Source of the DNA: a virus
Taxonomy: Duplodnaviria > Heunggongvirae > Uroviricota > Caudoviricetes
Length of the DNA: 39,564 bases
Virus record (IMG/VR): IMGVR_UViG_2684622542_000012
Strand: one strand, 5' to 3'
Every line of letters starts with the position of its first letter. Position 1 is the stretch's first letter. A program made the position numbers and the translations under genes. Shown here piece by piece: positions 1 to 34,056 of the stretch. Below the pieces are notes generated by a model that saw only the letters and a list, made by a program, of their open reading frames with translations, did not search any database and was not told where the DNA came from.

Positions 1-1236
1 CTACGATAACCGCGCATTCAACATGGCTACCTGTTCGTCGTTCATGTCATCAATCCACATACCGTAAATTTCATACACCATCTGCGCAGTTTCATGCCCC
101 ATCTGGCTGGCTATAAACGCCGGGTTCGCTCCTGCCGTCAACAGCCAGCAGGCAAAAGTATGCCGCGTATGGTACGGATTACGGCGGCGAATACCAGCAC
201 GTTTTACTGCTGCATTCCATCTCGCACCCAAACTGCTTACCGAGTAATAAGGTTTCTGTTTTCCGTTACACACTCTGGGCATGAAAACAAAATGCAGTTT
301 TTGCTTTTCGGTTCTGCCGTACTCCCGATGATAAAAAGTGATTTCGCTTTTGCGATGATGCCCGGTCAGTTTGTATTGCTCCTTCAGTGCTTCAAGAGCA
401 GGCTGCAGTAGTGTTACCGTCCGGATCCCCGCATTTGTTTTTGGGGGACCGAACATATCCAGTATCGTCAGGTTTCTTCTGACATTCACAACTCCCTTCT
501 CGAAATCCACATCCTCCCACGCCAGAGCAGCCAGTTCCCCGTGACGAAGCCCGGAGTATACGGCAAATTTCCACAAGTTCTGGCTCTGTCCTTTTTCACT
601 TTCCATTAATGCATTGAATTCTGTTTTAGATAACGGGTCAGGCTTTATTCTGTTTCTCTGTAATTTCTTTACTCCTTCAAATGGTTTGGTTGATATAAAT
701 CCCGACTGATACGCAAAACGTAACAACGAACAGAGCAGGGCGATATAGTTATCAACTGTGCGCACGGTTCTTCCTTTTTTGTTGGATCTTGGATTATCCA
801 GGTAAAGCGTTTCTCCATGCAGCAGTTCATTCCGGTAGTTTAAGATATCGCTATAACGAATATGCGATATCGGAGTACTCTCACAAATTATTATCCTGAG
901 TGTTTTTAATTGTGATTTCGTTTTCTTCATTGTGTTTGTTGTTAACTCTGTTTCTTTAATTTTTGTCCAGATATCACAAAGCTCCCCGAACGTTTTTATG
1001 ACCCTCGTTGTCACCATTTTTGCCCCAGTGCTGGACTGGGGAAAACGTCTTAAATACTCAAACTCACCGGAATTGATTTCATGAACTATCAACGCTCTTA
1101 AATTCCCGGCTTTTTTAATGTTACTGTTAGTAACCTCCCAGCCTTTCAATGTTTCCCGACATCGTTTTCCTCGAAACATGAACCAGATGCGAATGTATTT
1201 ACCTCGAATCTCGACACCTGTTGGTAATTTAGACAT
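1..1236 (-). CDS. intR: Phage integrase, tyrosine recombinase (Rac IntR-like), 411 aa
   Basis: Complete ORF on minus strand with stop at bases 1-3. N-terminus MSKLPTGVEIRGKYIRIWFMFRGKRCRETLKGW matches my recall of Rac IntR. C-terminal HxxR...Y catalytic region typical of tyrosine recombinases. Confidence 0.9.
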   Translation of the reverse strand: MSKLPTGVEIRGKYIRIWFMFRGKRCRETLKGWEVTNSNIKKAGNLRALIVHEINSGEFEYLRRFPQSSTGAKMVTTRVIKTFGELCDIWTKIKETELTTNTMKKTKSQLKTLRIIICESTPISHIRYSDILNYRNELLHGETLYLDNPRSNKKGRTVRTVDNYIALLCSLLRFAYQSGFISTKPFEGVKKLQRNRIKPDPLSKTEFNALMESEKGQSQNLWKFAVYSGLRHGELAALAWEDVDFEKGVVNVRRNLTILDMFGPPKTNAGIRTVTLLQPALEALKEQYKLTGHHRKSEITFYHREYGRTEKQKLHFVFMPRVCNGKQKPYYSVSSLGARWNAAVKRAGIRRRNPYHTRHTFACWLLTAGANPAFIASQMGHETAQMVYEIYGMWIDDMNDEQVAMLNARLS

Positions 1237-1237
1237 A

Positions 1238-1453
1238 TCATGAGTCTTTGATAAACTGATTTATCTTTGGATAGTTATACCAGATAATCCCTCGCTTACT
1301 GTCTGGCTTCCCTAAAGGAGATACTCGTTTGAAGTGGAAGCCTTCCACCCAACAGTTCTGGCGGTATGCTTCAATTTGTCTGGCCCCCAGACCAGTGCGA
1401 AGCATCAGGCCGTATTCAACCATCCACTCTTCATTAAAGATTACTTGTGCCAT
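1238..1453 (-). CDS. xisR: Excisionase (Rac XisR/YdaQ-like), 71 aa
   Basis: Small ORF immediately upstream of int on the same strand. Internal start gives [30 protein letters not shown]..., as recalled for Rac XisR. Int-xis arrangement. Confidence 0.8.
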
Positions 1454-1552: not shown

Positions 1553-1753
1553 TCACGAGGACTGAAGTTTCTCGCAATTAAAATTTATCAGTTTTACTTT
1601 CTGCTCTCTGGAAACGCCTGCTTCTTTTTTACCTGAGAGCATTTTTTCGCATTCTGATTTCGTTAGTTTAGATTTTGAATATCTTGTCCAGTTAGTAGGA
1701 GTGCCACCTTCCTTTTCAATAGTGGCGGTAATTTTATACATGAACACCTCCAT
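1553..1753 (-). CDS. rcbA: RcbA/YdaC-like small protein (DUF1187-like)
   Basis: ORF MEVFMYKITATIEKEGGTPTNWTRYSKSKLTKSECEKML... in the position of Rac ydaC, downstream of ralR. Exact start uncertain (ATG at 1753 or 1741). Confidence 0.55.
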   Translation of the reverse strand: MEVFMYKITATIEKEGGTPTNWTRYSKSKLTKSECEKMLSGKKEAGVSREQKVKLINFNCEKLQSS

Positions 1754-1928
1754 TATTATTTCCAGTGGTTCGTTTATTTCATCGTTCGAGTGCTTCTTTT
1801 TCACTTCCACCATAACCGGTTCGGGATTCGCATCCGTTACACTTCGCTCGGTAATATCCTGAAATGGCTTTCACCGTTACTGATGGACAACCACAAAATG
1901 GACATGGTTTAACATTGTCATATCTCAT
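1734..1928 (-). pseudogene. ralR: Restriction-alleviation protein RalR/Lar homolog with in-frame TGA after codon 49
   Basis: Minus-strand translation from ATG at 1928 gives MRYDNVKPCPFCGCPSVTVKAISGYYRAKCNGCESRTGYGGSEKEALER, then TGA at 1779-1781. The same frame continues NKRTTGNNNGGVHV to TAA at 1734-1736, which is the C-terminus I recall for 64-aa K-12 RalR. Confidence 0.55.
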
Positions 1929-1983: not shown

Positions 1984-2793
1984 TTATTCCTCTGAATTAT
2001 CGATTACACTGTATTCCCCGGTTAATACAGAGGAATCTGCAGGATCGATTGTCAGTGGTTCCTTTTCATCCATTGATACTGCACGCTGGATCTCAATTGA
2101 TACGGGCAGATATTTGAACAGGCGACGAATAGCCGTTTTCTTTGCCATTTCTTCCCAGTGAGTTACCCACGGCCCGTTATTACCAGCTTTACTCTGGCTG
2201 CGCACCAGCTCAATCTGTTTGCGCGTCATAACTTCAAACTGAGTACCTCCGTCTTTCAGTCTTGCGACAGCATAGACGTGGGTAACAGGGGCATCTTCGT
2301 TTTCTCCTGGGCGGTGTATTAACTTTTCATCAAGGCCAAATTCGAAATTAAACTCGTCACCTTCACGGACAACACGGGCTGACAGGCTGGCGATTTGACC
2401 TGAACGGCGAGCCAGATCAATCATGCCGCGATAGCCAATGATTAGCTGAACGTTTTTTTTACCGCTCTTTTCGTTTTTATTACCAAAAGGCAGTAAATAT
2501 GCATGACCGAGGGCGCTACCGGGCTCAAGTCCGAGCTGTGAACACTGTACGATTGCACTGACAAAACTCATAGTGTCACAGTTTCCTAACGCCGGAACTT
2601 TACGAATTTCTGTGGTGGCGATACGGATCATACGTTCAGCCGTCATATGGCGTGGAAGAGCTGCTGCCAGTTGCTCTTTCATTGATGGCTGGTTAATAAA
2701 ACTAATCACGTCGTTATTTTTAATTGCTGCTGGTGCACGGTTTCCCTGAGTTTTTTGCAGATCGGCTTTTGCGATTGGTGGTTGCTTAGTCAT
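1984..2793 (-). CDS. recT: RecT single-strand annealing recombinase, 269 aa
   Basis: Internal ATG gives MTKQPPIAKADLQKTQGNRAPAAIKNNDVISFINQPSMKEQLAAALPRHM..., matching recalled E. coli RecT over its length (269 aa). Directly downstream of recE on the same strand. Confidence 0.9.
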   Translation of the reverse strand: MTKQPPIAKADLQKTQGNRAPAAIKNNDVISFINQPSMKEQLAAALPRHMTAERMIRIATTEIRKVPALGNCDTMSFVSAIVQCSQLGLEPGSALGHAYLLPFGNKNEKSGKKNVQLIIGYRGMIDLARRSGQIASLSARVVREGDEFNFEFGLDEKLIHRPGENEDAPVTHVYAVARLKDGGTQFEVMTRKQIELVRSQSKAGNNGPWVTHWEEMAKKTAIRRLFKYLPVSIEIQRAVSMDEKEPLTIDPADSSVLTGEYSVIDNSEE

Positions 2794-2846: not shown

Positions 2847-5393
2847 TCATNNNNNNNNNNNNNNNNNNNNNNNNNNNNNNNNNNNNNNNNNNNNNNNNNN
2901 NNNNNNNNNNNNNNNNNNNNNNNNNNNNNNNNNNNNNNNNNNNNNNNNNNNNNNNNNNNNNNNNNNNNNNNNNNNNNNNNNNNNNNNNNNNNNNNNNNNN
3001 NNNNNNNNNNNNNNNNNNNNNNNNNNNNNNNNNNNNNNNNNNNNNNNNNNNNNNNNNNNNNNNNNNNNNNNNNNNNNNNNNNNNNNNNNNNNNNNNNNNN
3101 NNGCCGTAGTTTTCACGTCCATGATCCAGTGAAATTCAGGGATAATTTTGTCCGGACGGCACCGACACAAAATTGCTGTTTCAGGATCTTCCCAGTAAAT
3201 TGATGATTCAGCGTGTCCGGCGCTTTCAACAAGCCATTGCCCCAGCGGCAAAGCCATAACGCTCTGATACATGAGTTCAATTTTCCGGCCTTCTTCGGCA
3301 GTGATAACCGTTTTTCCTGTGCTTGCGCATTCCCTCAGAAACGCTTTCTCTTCTTCTTTTCCGGAGTTTGTCCGGCGGTTAAATTCAGGTGCTACGATAA
3401 AGCGGTTACTGAATTCTTCCGGCTCAAGTACCCGGCAGTGGAAAGCGGTTCCTAAATCGAGCGTTTTTGTCTTTGTGGTGTCCACGGGGGCATTTTTACG
3501 CCACAAATACAGTGCCGGAGTATCAGCAATGTCATCGAGCTGAGACTTACTGACACCGGGACCCGCGTGGTAATTCTCATTCGAAATTCCGTAATAAATA
3601 CCTGGCTCTATGTCTTCTACGATTACGGGATCTGCGACTTCGCCAGTTTCATCACTGCAATCGCGATGCGGATCGCTGCCAGCATTCTCATTGTGCGGAT
3701 GTTCAGCGCCTTCCATTTCCTCCGGATCATTTTCCTTAGCTTCAACCTGACTCTCTTCATCGAATGTTTCCTGGTATGTTGCGTCGCCCATCACCGCACC
3801 ACAGTCAGGGCAGTTATCCCCGCCAGTCTGGCCGCAGGCATTGCAGGCTATTTCCGGTTCCTGTTGCACTACTGGCTCAGGTTGATTCATATCCGGGCTG
3901 GTTTTTTCCGTTTCTGGCTGGTTCTGGTACACACAATCGCGAGTCTGGATCCCCTTTACCCATTTCGGATCGTTCGGGTCGCTAATTCCGTCAACAAATT
4001 CACCACGTGATGCAGCAAGCAATTTATCGGCATCGACAGGATTTTTTGATGGAATGTTTTTCCGGGCTTCATGGAGTTCTGCCCGCAGTTCCTGATATTT
4101 CGCATCAACAGAATTTACCTGTGACTGAGCATCCAGCGGCTGCGTGTCCTGATGATGTTCAGTTGCGTCCGGTTCCATTGTTTCAGCCTCTCCCTGTTCA
4201 ACTGCCGTTGTTCCAGATGGTTGCGGTTTTTCTTCATCATCCTGTTTTCCTTCTTCTGTTACTCGCTGCGGCATCGGGGCAGAGGAGCGACCGCAGGCAA
4301 TATCCACGATTTCCGGATCAGGGTTGGCATGATCGGTTTCAGTCAGTACTTTGTTCAGATATTCAGTGACGTGCGCGGGGATGACCTCGATCCCAATTGG
4401 TGCTTCTTTTACGGACGCAACCACGATGGCGCGGGAATAATCCAGCCCGCCAGGCATGGTGATGAATTTGTCGCGGAAAACAGAAAAGGGCGGTTTATTT
4501 TCAGCGATAATTTCCTCAATGCGTTTAGCGTGTGCCGGATGAAGGTTATAGATGTCCAGATCCATTGAACGGGCCAGTACGCCAGTGGCTACGTCCCGCG
4601 CCAGTGACGTCAGATCGTGTACGAAACCTTCGCCGCGATCGGTGAGGTTTCCGCCGCCAGCATTAGCACCGGAAGCCGTGCGAGTGATGTGTGAAACACG
4701 ATTACCCTTCATCCACTCTTTTGTCAGCAGTCCTCGATCGGTGTAGTCAGCGTTCAGGTATGCTTCGAAAAAAGCAGTTATCAGTCCCAGGTTTGAATTA
4801 CCAGGATTAGGGAAAACTTTGTCAGTGTCACGAACCAGTTTGTGGAGTTCGCGAATTTCCAGCGGGTCGAGCAGGCTGGTTTTGTGGGAAACAGCCAGGG
4901 CAGTAACAGCCGGTAGTTCTTCAGCCCGAGCAATGTGTAATGCCTGGAGTCCGTCGCGTGAAACGTGCGTTACCGGTTTTTCGCTGCCGTGTTGAGCAAG
5001 CCAACGAATGGGCAGTTCCTGGCCAGAAATTGGGAGTAGCATATTCTCCTCAATCTCAGTCATGTCTTCGCCGTTGACGTTGGTATTGCCTTGATAGTGA
5101 GCGTTGTCTGGTGCTGCTCCCGGTTTTAGTTCCCATGTCATGGAGTCTTTGCTGAGTTGATAGCGTTCACTCCAGGTAAAATCGATCTCACCTTCAGCGG
5201 GCAGGTCATTAACGACAGGAAAATTCGTGGCAACAGCTTTAAAATAGCTGCTCAGTTTTTTACCTGACTTAACGATCAGGTAGTCCAGAGTGGCACAGGT
5301 CGATTCAAAATCGTTGCTTGCCCACAGGACGACGTCAGGTTCACCGGATGATTTTTTCGCTTTCCGTAACAGGAAGAGTGGTTTTGTGCTCAT
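2847..5393 (-). CDS. recE: RecE exonuclease VIII; C-terminal part lies in masked N-run 2851-3102
   Basis: Long minus-strand [44 protein letters not shown]... with acidic linker and C-terminal nuclease region ([24 protein letters not shown]...). Overlaps recT start as in the recET operon. C-terminus unreadable because of Ns. Confidence 0.85.
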
Positions 5394-17251: not shown

Positions 17252-18128
17252 ACGTCAGGAAAGCAGGGGAGAATGCTGCTAGTTGGGCAACTGGTCTTTC
17301 TGCTCCAAATTATAACAGAGACCAGTTATAGTTTCGGTGCTGTGTTTTTTTTACAATATTGTGATAACACATTGCTGGCGGGAGTTTTGATATTTCTTGG
17401 CAGGGGCTGATGATGCGTTATCCTGATGTCGTCAACTCATATAAAATGAGATGAGAGATCATTGCAGGGTGGTTTGTAATNNNNNNNNNNNNNNNNNNNN
17501 NNNNNNNNNNNNNNNNNNNNNNNNNNNNNNNNNNNNNNNNNNNNNNNNNNNNNNNNNNNNNNNNNNNNNNNNNNNNNNNNNNNNNNNNNNNNNNNNNNNN
17601 NNNNNNNNNNNNNNNNNNNNNNNNNNNNNNNNNNNNNNNNNNNNNNNNNNNNNNNNNNNNNNNNNNNNNNNNNNNNNNNNNNNNNNNNNNNNNNNNNNNN
17701 NNNNNNNNNNNNNNNNNNNNNNNNNNNNNNNNNNGTATGATGAGTATTTTTTGTTTTCCTTTTTTCCAGTCATCTGATGATGACCTGCTTCTTTTTAATC
17801 CGGATCGACATCAGTTTTTTAAGATAATTCCTGCGAGTTATATGCATAAATGCCACAAACTCCGCATTTTATGTGGTTGGGAGTTGCCGGGCGCGCAGTG
17901 AGTTTGCTAAGAAAACTCCTGCATGGTGAATCCCCCTGTGCGGTGGGGTGATACCATTAACCTTTTCTGTCGCCGACAGGTATCACGAACATTTTGTTCA
18001 CCGGGAGGCACCCGGCACCATGCACTTCAATAGATTCTCTCCACATTATGGATATTCTTTCAGAATATCCCACGCAGACTTTGTGTAAATGTTAACAAAT
18101 GTGCGTTTTATTTGATCTGATTCGCTGT

Positions 18129-18187: not shown

Positions 18188-18616
18188 ATGGGTTTTCGTA
18201 GCGCATCAATTCTTACGTTGATTATTAGTGGGATTATTATCGGGTGCACTGATGCTGTATCGACAAATTATCATGACCGTACATCATATTACTCCGATAA
18301 AGCAATAGAGACACAGTATGTGAGTTCATCTGAACGTACTTCTGATGTTAGTGAGGATATCCGTCTGTATGCCCATCAAATCAAGAGCGCCATCGAAAAA
18401 CAGTTCGGGGATGCGAGTAAGTATTCAGGAAAAGAGTGTACACTGAGAATGCATATGGCCCCGAATGGCCTTCTACTGGAGGTTAAAAGAGAAAGTGGAG
18501 ACCTCGATTTATGTCGTGAAGCGATGAATGCGATAAAGAATGCTGATATACCTGCCCCCCCTTCGCCGGAAGTATATAAAGTATTTCAAAATGGGGTGCT
18601 GGATTTTAAACCCTGA
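18188..18616 (+). CDS. Lipoprotein with TolA C-terminal domain III-like fold
   Basis: Signal peptide with lipobox IIGC. C-terminal region YAHQIKSAIEKQFGDASKYSGKECTLRMHMAPNGLLLEVKRESGDLDLCREAMNAIKNADIPAPPSPEVYKVFQNGVLDFKP is colinear with the recalled E. coli TolA C-terminus (YAGQIKSAIESKFYDASSYAGKTCTLRIKLAPDG...PPSQAVYEVFKNAPLDFKP). Confidence 0.75.
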   Translation: MGFRSASILTLIISGIIIGCTDAVSTNYHDRTSYYSDKAIETQYVSSSERTSDVSEDIRLYAHQIKSAIEKQFGDASKYSGKECTLRMHMAPNGLLLEVKRESGDLDLCREAMNAIKNADIPAPPSPEVYKVFQNGVLDFKP

Positions 18617-18937
18617 TATTTATTGTTTTGTAATAAACGGTTTCGGCTTAGGTTTGTTCTGACNNNNNNNNNNNNNNNNNNNNNNNNNNNNNNNNNNNNN
18701 NNNNNNNNNNNNNNNNNNNNNNNNNNNNNNNNNNNNNNNNNNNNNNNNNNNNNNNNNNNNNNNNNNNNNNNNNNNNNNNNNNNNNNNNNNNNNNNNNNNN
18801 NNNNNNNNNNNNNNNNNNNNNNNNNNNNNNNNNNNNNNNNNNNNNNNNNNNNNNNNNNNNNNNNNNNNNNNNNNNNNNNNNNNNNNNNNNNNNNNNNNNN
18901 NNNNNNNNNNNNNNNNNNNNNNNNNNNNNNNNNNNNN

Positions 18938-20155: not shown

Positions 20156-20687
20156 GCAGGGTAACCGCGATTATCTCCGCTCTGGTTATNNNNNNNNNNN
20201 NNNNNNNNNNNNNNNNNNNNNNNNNNNNNNNNNNNNNNNNNNNNNNNNNNNNNNNNNNNNNNNNNNNNNNNNNNNNNNNNNNNNNNNNNNNNNNNNNNNN
20301 NNNNNNNNNNNNNNNNNNNNNNNNNNNNNNNNNNNNNNNNNNNNNNNNNNNNNNNNNNNNNNNNNNNNNNNNNNNNNNNNNNNNNNNNNNNNNNNNNNNN
20401 NNNNNNNNNNNNNNNNNNNNNNNNNNNNNNNNNNNNNNNNNNNNNCGAAAGCTGAAAATGATGCTCTGCGTGATGATGTTGCCGCTGGTCGTCGTCGGTT
20501 GCACATCAAAGCAGTCTGTCAGTCAGTGCGTGAAGCCACCACCGCCTCCGGCGTGGATAATGCAGCCTCCCCCCGACTGGCAGACACCGCTGAACGGGAT
20601 TATTTCACCCTCCGGGAACGACTGGTAATGATGCAGGCCCAACTTGAAGGTGCTCAGCAATACATAACCGAGCAGTGTTTAAAGTAA
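20152..20687 (+). CDS. Rz-like inner-membrane spanin; middle in N-run 20190-20445
   Basis: Start [12 protein letters not shown]... overlaps the endolysin stop. C-terminal coiled-coil part after the gap (...[26 protein letters not shown]...[17 protein letters not shown]). Frames before and after the gap differ, so the gap length is not the true length. Confidence 0.7.
20458..20628 (+). CDS. Rz1-like outer-membrane lipoprotein spanin embedded in Rz (+1 frame)
   Basis: [56 protein letters not shown]: lipobox VVGC, proline-rich, nested in Rz. Confidence 0.65.
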   Translation: MMLCVMMLPLVVVGCTSKQSVSQCVKPPPPPAWIMQPPPDWQTPLNGIISPSGNDW

Positions 20688-22419: not shown

Positions 22420-22860
22420 ATGAGCGAGAAATTAAAGATAGTCTATCGCCCATTACAAGAATTGTCACCGTATGCGCACAACGCCAGGACGCACAGTACT
22501 GAGCAGGTGGCACAACTGGTAGAAAGTATTAAGCAATTCGGCTGGACTAATCCGGTNNNNNNNNNNNNNNNNNNNNNNNNNNNNNNNNNNNNNNNNNNNN
22601 NNNNNNNNNNNNNNNNNNNNNNNNNNNNNNNNNNNNNNNNNNNNNNNNNNNNNNNNNNNNNNNNNNNNNNNNNNNNNNNNNNNNNNNNNNNNNNNNNNNN
22701 NNNNNNNNNNNNNNNNNNNNNNNNNNNNNNNNNNNNNNNNNNNNNNNNNNNNNNNNNNNNNNNNNNNNNNNNNNNNNNNNNNNNNNNNNNNNNNNNNNNN
22801 NNNNNNNNNNNNNNNNNNNNNNNNNNNNNNNNNNNNNNNNNNAAATTGATGAACTGTTGA
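22420..22860 (+). CDS. ynaK: ParB-like nuclease domain protein (YnaK-like); middle in N-run 22557-22842
   Basis: N-terminus MSEKLKIVYRPLQELSPYAHNARTHSTEQVAQLVESIKQFGWTNP has the ParB N-terminal signature (L.PY..NAR.H). Rest masked. Confidence 0.6.
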   Translation: MSEKLKIVYRPLQELSPYAHNARTHSTEQVAQLVESIKQFGWTNPXXXXXXXXXXXXXXXXXXXXXXXXXXXXXXXXXXXXXXXXXXXXXXXXXXXXXXXXXXXXXXXXXXXXXXXXXXXXXXXXXXXXXXXXXXXXXXXXKLMNC

Positions 22861-25456: not shown

Positions 25457-26748
25457 TGTGCCTCAGGCGCGATTTCTTTCAATGCCCCATAAATTTAAAG
25501 CCTATATTGCTGGTTTTGGCTCGGGCAAAACATGGGTTGGGTGTGGCGGCATATGCAAGGGGATTTGGGAGCATCCAGGTATAAATCAGGGATATTTTGC
25601 GCCAACGTATCCCCAAATTCGCGATATTTTTTACCCTACAGTGGAAGAAGTTGCTGCTGACTGGGGATTGAACGTAAAAATTAATGAGGGAAATAAAGAG
25701 GTTCACTTTTATTACGGACGCCAGTATCGGGGAACCACTATCTGCAGATCGATGGAGAAGCCACAAACGATCGTCGGTTTCAAAATTGGTAATGCGTTGG
25801 TGGATGAACTGGACATTTTGCCGAAGGAAAAAGCCAGAACGGCGTGGCGCAAGATAATTGCACGTATGCGTTATAAGATTGATGGACTTCGCAACGGTAT
25901 TGACGTTACAACCACGCCGGAAGGATTCAAATTTGTCTACGAGCAGTTTGTTAAAGCCGTGCGTGAAAAAACAGAGCTGGCCTCACTGTATGGTCTGGTG
26001 CAGGCATCTACTTTCGATAATGAAAAGAACCTGCCAGCAGATTACATTCCTTCGCTTCTTGAATCATACCCTCCAGAGCTGATTAAAGCCTATCTTCGAG
26101 GACAGTTTACTAACCTGACAAGTGGTACTGTTTACCATCAGTTTGACCGGAAACTGAATAATTGCGAAGAAGTGGAGCAGCCAGGGGAGCCGATTTATAT
26201 TGGGATGGATTTTAACGTTGGAAAGATGGCGGGAATCGTCCATGTGCTGCGTTTGGGGCTTCCATGTGCGGTAACTGAAATCATCAATGCCTACGATACG
26301 CCGGATATGATCCGCATCATTAAAGAACGCTTCTGGCTGTATGATGGGAATGATTACCGGAANNNNNNNNNNNNNNNNNNNNNNNNNNNNNNNNNNNNNN
26401 NNNNNNNNNNNNNNNNNNNNNNNNNNNNNNNNNNNNNNNNNNNNNNNNNNNNNNNNNNNNNNNNNNNNNNNNNNNNNNNNNNNNNNNNNNNNNNNNNNNN
26501 NNNNNNNNNNNNNNNNNNNNNNNNNNNNNNNNNNNNNNNNNNNNNNNNNNNNNNNNNNNNNNNNNNNNNNNNNNNNNNNNNNNNNNNNNNNNNNNNNNNN
26601 NNNNNNNNNNNNNCAGGTCTGGGATGAGAAGGGGGAGCCTGATAAAAAATCTGGCAATGATCACCCGAATGATGCCGGAGGTTATTTCATCGTTAAGCAA
26701 TTCCCTATTGTCAAACCGACCGGAAGAGTCACATCACTTCGGATTTAA
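25437..26748 (+). CDS. Terminase large subunit; part in N-run 26363-26613
   Basis: Walker A YIAGFGSGKTWVGCGG near the N-terminus. RBS gtAAGGAGtg upstream. C-terminal segment continues after the gap to stop at 26746-26748. Confidence 0.85.
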
Positions 26749-33157: not shown

Positions 33158-34056
33158 GTGAGTTCAGGTGCAAAGGTTATCTCGGCATTTATCCGGGAGA
33201 CGGTTGCAGGCACTACGCCAGCAAGTGGTGACTGGAGTTTATTAAAACGCACAAGCTGGGGAGTAAAANNNNNNNNNNNNNNNNNNNNNNNNNNNNNNNN
33301 NNNNNNNNNNNNNNNNNNNNNNNNNNNNNNNNNNNNNNNNNNNNNNNNNNNNNNNNNNNNNNNNNNNNNNNNNNNNNNNNNNNNNNNNNNNNNNNNNNNN
33401 NNNNNNNNNNNNNNNNNNNNNNNNNNNNNNNNNNNNNNNNNNNNNNNNNNNNNNNNNNNNNNNGCTCATGGAAAATGCAGATCCCTAACGACGGCGATAT
33501 TACAGCGACCGTAACCTTTGCCGGACTGGACTGGGAATCAAAGGCCGATGATACGAATTTTATCAAAGGCGAACCTGTGGATAGTGCAGGAAAGCTACGT
33601 TATTCGTTTAAGGAGGTTTCAGCAGTAAGCCTGAATGGTGTTGCCGGAGGTAACGGTTTTTGTATCGACAGTTTTGATATTCAGTTCGATAACAAACTCC
33701 AGACACAGCGTTGTATCGGGACTGGCTCGCCTTATGCAGGAGCAAATATTCCGACTACTTTTACACCGTCCGGTACGGTGACGCTTTCATGGTCTAAAGC
33801 CGCGTGGGAAATCTGGAGTAAAACACTGACTGGAGAAACAGTTCCGTTCAGCTTCACGCTTTCGAATGGAGAGGGGGCATACACTTTCAGTTTCCCGAAG
33901 GTTCAGGTGTCAGGTGAATGGCCTGATGGGGGTAATAGCGACATTATCCAGGTTCAATTGAGCATTACCGCAGCAGATGAAGCACCTACGATAACCAGAA
34001 AAAAAAATTCCCCGGCTGCCGTGATCGCAAAAGCCAGTGCTGAGGCGATTAGTTGA
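33158..34056 (+). CDS. Putative major tail (tube) protein; interrupted by N-run 33269-33463
   Basis: N-terminal fragment MSSGAKVISAFIRETVAGTTPASGDWSLLKRTSWGVK..., then a Thr/Ser/Gly-rich beta-type sequence after the gap to stop at 34056. Frames differ across the gap. Confidence 0.55.

Follow-up and report, generated by a model that had tools for sequence, protein, structure and literature searches.

Why does a toxin gene end after 49 codons when the remainder of its coding sequence still stands in frame behind the stop, and does the shortened protein retain activity? The question is raised by ralR at the left end of a Caudoviricetes record from IMG/VR (IMGVR_UViG_2684622542_000012), a 39,564-nucleotide stretch of DNA that is referred to here, in its entirety, as the window. 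The answer that we consider probable is that ralR carries an inherited nonsense allele of single origin whose product is likely inactive, within a locus that is otherwise intact.

On the minus strand, positions 1940-1734 translate to MRKIMRYDNVKPCPFCGCPSVTVKAISGYYRAKCNGCESRTGYGGSEKEALER, a stop, NKRTTGNNNGGVHV and a second stop. The initial annotation had named the gene ralR and placed 49 codons ahead of a TGA at 1779-1781, and both the name and the coordinates proved exact. It had also recognized the next 14 in-frame codons as the C terminus of K-12 RalR; the 42 nt 3' of the premature TGA are indeed those of K-12, base for base. We aligned the gene with its counterpart in MG1655 (NC_000913.3; ralR b1348, ralA b4714, rcbA b1347), a deterministic comparison in which no statistical signal is involved, and found 193 of 195 nt identical. 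One of the two differences turns codon 50 from TGG to TGA and the other turns codon 49 from AGA to CGA. The single change that had been proposed, TGG to TGA (W50*), is thus borne out as the lesion but not as the only substitution, since a synonymous one lies directly beside it. Codon 50 is TGG (Trp) in K-12 and in every other full-length relative, and the base that follows the TGA in the window is A (context UGA-A). With this stop the toxin open reading frame (ORF) of the RalR/RalA type I pair is not intact: compared with K-12 RalR it has 49 codons rather than 64 and lacks W50, N51, K52 and R53. The features of the locus are listed in Table 1.

Table 1. Features of the ralR locus and its neighbors, in coordinates of the window.
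Feature	Position	Strand	Basis or remark
intR	1-1236	-	ORF layout; EDL933/K-12 annotation
xisR	1238-1453	-	ORF layout; EDL933/K-12 annotation
rcbA (ydaC, DUF1187), 62 aa	1553-1741	-	EDL933 CDS; PF06688, 132 bits, model positions 1-61 of 61
RalA antitoxin sRNA, 179 nt	1557-1735	+	RF02694 (Rfam), 225.1 bits (gathering score 170), model positions 1-179
RalA seed, UGCUUCUUUUUUACCU	1619-1634	+	unchanged relative to K-12
original ralR stop, TAA	1734-1736	-	shares bases with RalA (3' end) and rcbA (5' end)
ralR 3' remnant, 14 in-frame codons, NKRTTGNNNGGVHV	1737-1778	-	untranslated past the TGA; identical to K-12
premature TGA, codon 50 of ralR	1779-1781	-	translation; alignment to K-12
codon 49 of ralR, CGA (Arg)	1782-1784	-	AGA in K-12; synonymous
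ralR ORF	1782-1928	-	49 sense codons, M1 to R49; ATG at 1928
16-nt RalA pairing site, AAGTGAAAAAGAAGCA, ralR codons 41-46	1791-1806	-	11-nt core at 1791-1801; identical to K-12
recT	1984-2793	-	270 codons; upstream neighbor of ralR in the same leftward operon
recE	from 2786	-	ORF layout; EDL933/K-12 annotation

The locus belongs to a known system. In the Rac prophage of K-12, the RalR/RalA pair (PMC4041452; b1348, b4714, RF02694) occurs in the same gene order, recE-recT-ralR-rcbA-xisR-intR, with the same 16-nt repeats and a RalA that is identical over 179 nt. The antisense RalA that the initial annotation had suggested looking for nearby is present at full length, without a single difference from K-12, and lies antisense to rcbA. 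The 16-nt complementarity between RalA and ralR, a pairing sequence that we deduced from M1, a construct of Guo et al. (2014; PMC4041452), is also preserved; the site in ralR ends 9 nt before the premature TGA, and the copy of the repeat within rcbA/ralA is intact too. RalA was found in all of the E. coli, Shigella and E. ruysiae-type loci tested. At the Rfam gathering score it was absent from the loci of two more distant Lar homologs, one in Citrobacter braakii (L014, 75% identity) and one in a Proteobacteria metagenome-assembled genome (L015, 67%), which suggests that RalA may be limited to the Escherichia-type ralR-rcbA arrangement.

A third complement of the RalA seed, the 13-mer AAAAAGAAGCAGG at 17784-17796 on the minus strand, was considered as a second RalA target and rejected because the similarity does not extend beyond it. 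It equals the rcbA copy of the pairing repeat, and no such match is expected in shuffles of the window; the score of the local alignment there falls within the shuffle range. The match is probably a coincidence.

The rcbA product is 62 aa long, compared with 69 aa in K-12, and we considered whether this gene is truncated as well. This was rejected, since codon 63 is TGA in five of the six lineages compared (the window, EDL933, L73, Rac-SA53 and 683R6) and AGA in K-12, and since the 62-aa form spans the whole DUF1187 model; the 69-aa RcbA of K-12 therefore appears to be a stop-loss extension. The polymorphism in this codon lies at 1555, 2 nt upstream of the RalA 5' end.

At its left end the window holds the early-left arm of a Rac-like lambdoid prophage, encoded entirely on the minus strand, and ralR sits in its usual place in the leftward early operon, with recT on one side and rcbA on the other. 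No internal stops occur in intR, xisR or recT, and their differences from K-12 are mostly synonymous (45 nt but 5 aa in intR, 12 nt but 4 aa in recT). With RalA and the neighboring genes unharmed, the operon is intact apart from a single lesion, in the toxin gene. The window prophage carries lysis, head and tail genes and is a full-length lambdoid element, in contrast to the 23-kb Rac remnant of K-12. A 14.4-kb portion of it is 100% identical to E. coli NCTC10444 and NCTC9112, and only 24 genomes carry at least 80% of this segment; the ralR arm is thus common to differently assembled Rac-like prophages, including Sp10 of Sakai. The genomes vB_EcoS-666R9, vB_EcoS-673R7 and vB_EcoS-613R10, which carry the allele, were considered as infectious virions and set aside, because the paper that names them places them within the genomes of clinical isolates; they therefore give no sign of an active prophage. 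A scan of positions 1400-2100 for promoter and terminator consensus sequences returned nothing informative. Upstream of the ralR start region, a T-run at about 1941-1946 has five Ts in the window and EDL933 and six in K-12. Seven masked runs of N, 195 to 286 nt long, interrupt the window (2851-3102, 17481-17734, 18664-18937, 20190-20445, 22557-22842, 26363-26613 and 33269-33463); one breaks recE and several yield spurious ORFs, and the ralR locus is free of them.

To determine how common the allele is, we probed 5,426 complete E. coli genomes with 55-mers that carry the polymorphism at their center, so that the 28-base word of megablast was forced to span it. The TGA 55-mer was found in 310 genomes, which, in a collection rich in O157:H7 and other enterohemorrhagic E. 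coli (EHEC), are not 310 independent observations. The TGG 55-mer was found in 1,310 genomes (123 with CGA-TGG and 1,187 mostly with AGA-TGG). The TGA share is accordingly about 19% among classified ralR loci, and the full-length allele is about four times as common; among the 1,923 genomes with the region, some 300 matched neither 55-mer and are unclassified. Many unrelated complete genomes match the 521 bp around the ralR locus at 100% identity, among them O157:H7 EDL933 and Sakai, O55:H7, O111 and various clinical isolates. The sources of the allele include bovine and human isolates, and it is present in three deposited prophage records.

The TGA is the derived state, as judged from sequence comparison. 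Tryptophan occupies codon 50 in all full-length relatives retrieved, including those of Salmonella (81% identical) and Citrobacter (73%), and the CGA-TGG haplotype occurs in strain L73 and phage Rac-SA53, whose ralR lineages are divergent. The 99% conservation of W50 across the Lar family, described below, points the same way. All 310 TGA matches are 100% identical over the 55-mer and carry CGA at codon 49, and the AGA-TGA haplotype was found in none of the 5,426 genomes, although its 98.2% identity would have seeded a match. These observations together point to a single derived step on the CGA background, and we infer that the TGA arose once, on the CGA(R49) haplotype. A separate scan of one genome per species recovered only full-length RalR, in E. 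coli, S. flexneri and E. ruysiae, and more distant Lar proteins in Citrobacter; one of its six seed patterns (EKEALERW) is blind to the TGA allele, so that the scan says little about distribution.

Other disruptions of ralR are rare. They comprise two frameshifts (P0003 and P0005) and two ralR-rcbA fusions (P0012 and P0015), each on 1 to 9 contigs. Both fusions are in frame and correspond to 1791-1801 and 1619-1629 on the minus strand; P0012 joins RalR residues 1-46 to RcbA exactly at the common AAAAAGAAGCA repeat. The P0012 fusion implies a deletion between the RalA-pairing repeats, one that would also have removed the 3' part of ralA.

The history that we favor is as follows. The TGG-to-TGA change would have arisen in a Rac-type ralR (also called lar) on the CGA(R49) haplotype and would since have been carried on the left arm (int-xis-rcbA-ralR-recT-recE) of several Rac-like lambdoid prophages that are assembled differently, such as Sp10/CP-933R of O157:H7 and the NCTC10444-type prophage in the window. 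The product would keep its zinc ribbon and lose half of its C-terminal helix together with the invariant W-N-x-R motif. The locus would now consist of an antitoxin with a crippled toxin, leaving RalA, the pairing site, rcbA and the recombination genes untouched. The truncation is most likely the ordinary decay of a prophage accessory gene.

It could be asked whether the nonsense allele instead spread because loss of a DNase toxin benefits the lysogen. A share of about one-fifth of classified loci, the presence of the allele in lineages as distant as O157:H7, O55:H7 and O111 and in bovine and human isolates, the few further independent disruptions and the intactness of the surrounding genes are all in keeping with such selection. 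However, the stop has one origin on one haplotype, the other disruptions are confined to a handful of contigs, full-length ralR still prevails, and RalA, which already neutralizes the toxin, is fully intact. In addition, Guo et al. (2014; PMC4041452) mention a large-scale screen of Keio mutants in which the ralR knockout has a negative fitness score on fosfomycin. How often the allele occurs does not by itself tell selection apart from hitchhiking or from an over-representation of EHEC, and drift in a repressed accessory gene, or hitchhiking with a successful prophage arm, fits the data equally well. We therefore regard selected inactivation as unlikely.

The preservation of the 14 codons behind the stop could also suggest that they are still translated. 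In E. coli, TGA is the stop that is most often read through, it is mainly replaced by Trp, and the rate goes up in the cold and when nutrients are limiting (PMC11126739; PMC10570021). The codon lost from ralR was a Trp codon, and what follows it is intact, in frame and closed by the native TAA. As UGA is leaky and read as Trp, some wild-type RalR may still be made; a near-cognate tRNA-Trp would then yield a low, condition-dependent amount of the 64-aa protein, and the allele would be attenuated rather than null. The tail has other reasons to persist, however. It holds the GGAGG ribosome-binding site of rcbA, adjoins the terminator hairpin of RalA and, in ATGTATAA, overlaps the rcbA start: the ATG lies at 1741-1739, and 5 nt of the old ralR 3' end (1737-1741) coincide with the first rcbA codons. 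In six lineages that diverge in other parts of the locus, the pairing site, the 5' part of rcbA and everything between the two are invariant, and the tail is equally invariant in TGG alleles. Because of these overlapping constraints, its preservation is no sign of continued translation, and a single recent mutation together with the independent constraint from the rcbA ribosome-binding site, the rcbA start and the RalA terminator would account for codons that are still in frame.

Other observations also argue against a significant role for readthrough. The stop occurs on a single E. coli haplotype, with TGG in every other lineage, unlike the conservation that a recoding-type stop would display, and no readthrough-stimulating element was identified at the ralR stop. 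The high rates of readthrough come from K-12, a strain with an RF2 variant that is unusually poor at termination (PMC11126739). The part of that paper that treats the following base has T raising termination and G lowering it and offers nothing specific on A, the base found at ralR. We consider a leaky stop of this kind very unlikely. Its elaboration into a "self-healing" stop, which would give more RalR in the cold or under nutrient stress and may have been favored by selection as a stress-gated low dose, is less likely still.

On the account that we prefer, the product is impaired, and the Lar family offers a measure of what it has lost. The 49-aa product shares the zinc ribbon of this family (PF14354 and TIGR03655; Lar of Rac), scores above both thresholds and keeps all four cysteines (C9, C12, C30 and C33; CxxC...CxxC). 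The W-N-x-R motif of the family's C-terminal helix, in contrast, goes untranslated, and the 49-aa product thus lacks this hallmark. An exhaustive HMMER search identified 909 family representatives at an E value of at most 1e-3, and conservation was calculated from 214 aligned Lar-family domains of 144 representatives that share no more than 50% identity with each other. In these domains W50 is conserved at 99%, N51 at 95% and R53 at 85%, next to 95 to 99% for the four cysteines. Apart from the cysteines, no residues of the family are more conserved than W50, N51 and R53, and all three lie 3' of the stop; conservation disappears only beyond about residue 54. Alignments of the query with the best 150 family representatives extend to about residue 52-60, which indicates that family homology runs past W50. 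The product reaches 39 bits against Pfam PF14354 (Lar_restr_allev; model positions 2-52 of 58), compared with 53.5 bits when the last six positions are included, and it exceeds the cut-off of TIGR03655 (anti_R_Lar) by 0.7 bits, with coverage that ends at position 49 of 55.

An AlphaFold model of a full-length RalR that is 92% identical, built on a shallow alignment of nine sequences and of moderate confidence (pLDDT 74.8), predicts a beta-hairpin at residues 17-30, a lone helix at 43-57 with W50 in its middle and a disordered tail at 59-64. A stop at codon 50 would, by this model, cut the only helix in half. RalR had no relative in the PDB by sequence, and a fold search returned no match at an E value of 0.001 or below, its top hits being generic zinc ribbons (eIF2-beta, Pol III Brf and an Elf1-like domain); the structure is consequently silent for or against a nuclease mechanism.

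Published mutagenesis bears directly on the missing residues. Guo et al. (2014; PMC4041452) reported that changes at residues 14, 37, 39, 49, 51 and 52, recovered by error-prone PCR, lower RalR toxicity, that altering E43-A46 abolishes it and that purified RalR K52Q does not cleave DNA. Residues 51 and 52 are among those missing from the 49-aa product. Taken together, the loss of the conserved W50, N51 and R53 and the sensitivity of positions 51 and 52 to mutation suggest that the product has most likely lost its function as a DNase toxin, wholly or in large part. Some residual or altered activity of the zinc-ribbon core may persist, since the 49-aa form still passes the NCBIfam RalR cut-off and is annotated as intact. 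It is probably impaired as a Lar-type restriction-alleviation protein too. Lar of Rac was assigned that role by King and Murray (1995), as cited in PMC4041452; in the introduction of that paper Guo et al. state that they did not see RalR inhibit restriction-modification.

It is highly improbable, in our view, that the 49-aa zinc-ribbon core is instead a functional short isoform, maintained for toxin, restriction-alleviation or other activity. The four cysteines and the beta-hairpin are kept, the product exceeds the cut-offs of Pfam and NCBIfam, and the allele persists inside operons that are otherwise whole, as such an isoform would predict; yet the protein has forfeited the W50, N51 and R53 of its family, single changes at 51 and 52 already lower toxicity (and K52Q abolishes DNA cleavage; PMC4041452), and the TIGR03655 margin is slight in a family whose homology continues past W50. 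A sequencing or assembly error at the codon-50 base of the source genome, raised as a caveat in the initial annotation and favored by nothing beyond general possibility, can be dismissed, since the identical allele recurs in 310 complete genomes that many laboratories assembled independently and on various platforms, in three prophage records and on at least 1,000 contigs of the protein collection. In the 310 genomes it is also linked to a specific synonymous marker, CGA at codon 49.

These contigs are those that bear the exact sequence of RefSeq WP_001443846.1, a 49-aa RalR with a MULTISPECIES name. A reference RalR that ends at residue 49, which the initial annotation had named as grounds for doubting a truncation, does therefore exist, but it is the same allele. 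Such records show that the allele is common and not that 49 residues is the native length, as W50 is kept in 99% of domains. In EDL933, the identical 150-nt coding sequence (CDS) is annotated as ralR (WP_001443846.1) without a pseudogene flag. Against the NCBIfam RalR equivalog NF007260 the 49-aa product scores 126.9 bits, where the cut-off is 113 and K-12 RalR scores 166, while covering only positions 1-49 of the 64 in the model and thus falling short of full length. That the fragment clears this cut-off explains how annotation pipelines miss the truncation. The PGAP name for the fragment is "endodeoxyribonuclease toxin RalR," as if it were intact. In Sakai (NC_002695.2; Sp10, locus 1763-2004) there is no CDS between ydaC (ECs_1931) and recT (ECs_1933); the same ralR allele is thus treated inconsistently, as a 49-aa CDS by PGAP in the identical EDL933 and as none in Sakai. 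In the literature on ralR in O157, we found no relevant description of the truncated allele. The W50 nonsense allele is a common natural variant, already catalogued, of a known system.

The locus resembles other decayed type I loci. The hok-like chromosomal loci of K-12 appear inactive (PMC4041452), and there, likewise, the toxin is broken by a simple mutation and the locus and its regulatory RNA persist. The toxins themselves differ, those of the hok type being small membrane peptides and RalR a soluble zinc-ribbon protein and reported DNase. The lesion differs also: a lone UGA in place of a Trp codon is in principle suppressible to wild-type protein. The allele raises no new biological question, yet it calls for caution in annotation, as about one-fifth of classified E. 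coli ralR loci, including those of EDL933 and Sakai, lack the invariant C-terminal motif. [quoted passage not shown] The allele also provides a natural test of the need for the W-N-x-R helix in the reported DNase activity and in restriction alleviation.

Two further observations lie outside the locus. The window contains an Rfam match to the STnc100 sRNA (RF02076) at 17891-18077 on the plus strand (86.6 bits; gathering score 47), a short way upstream of the ORFs beginning at 18188. The record PP818812.1, deposited as "Actinobacillus phage vB_Apl-pPE4," has a Rac-like recE/recT/ralR arm that is about 91% identical to the E. coli prophage of the window, an unexpected host assignment for this module.
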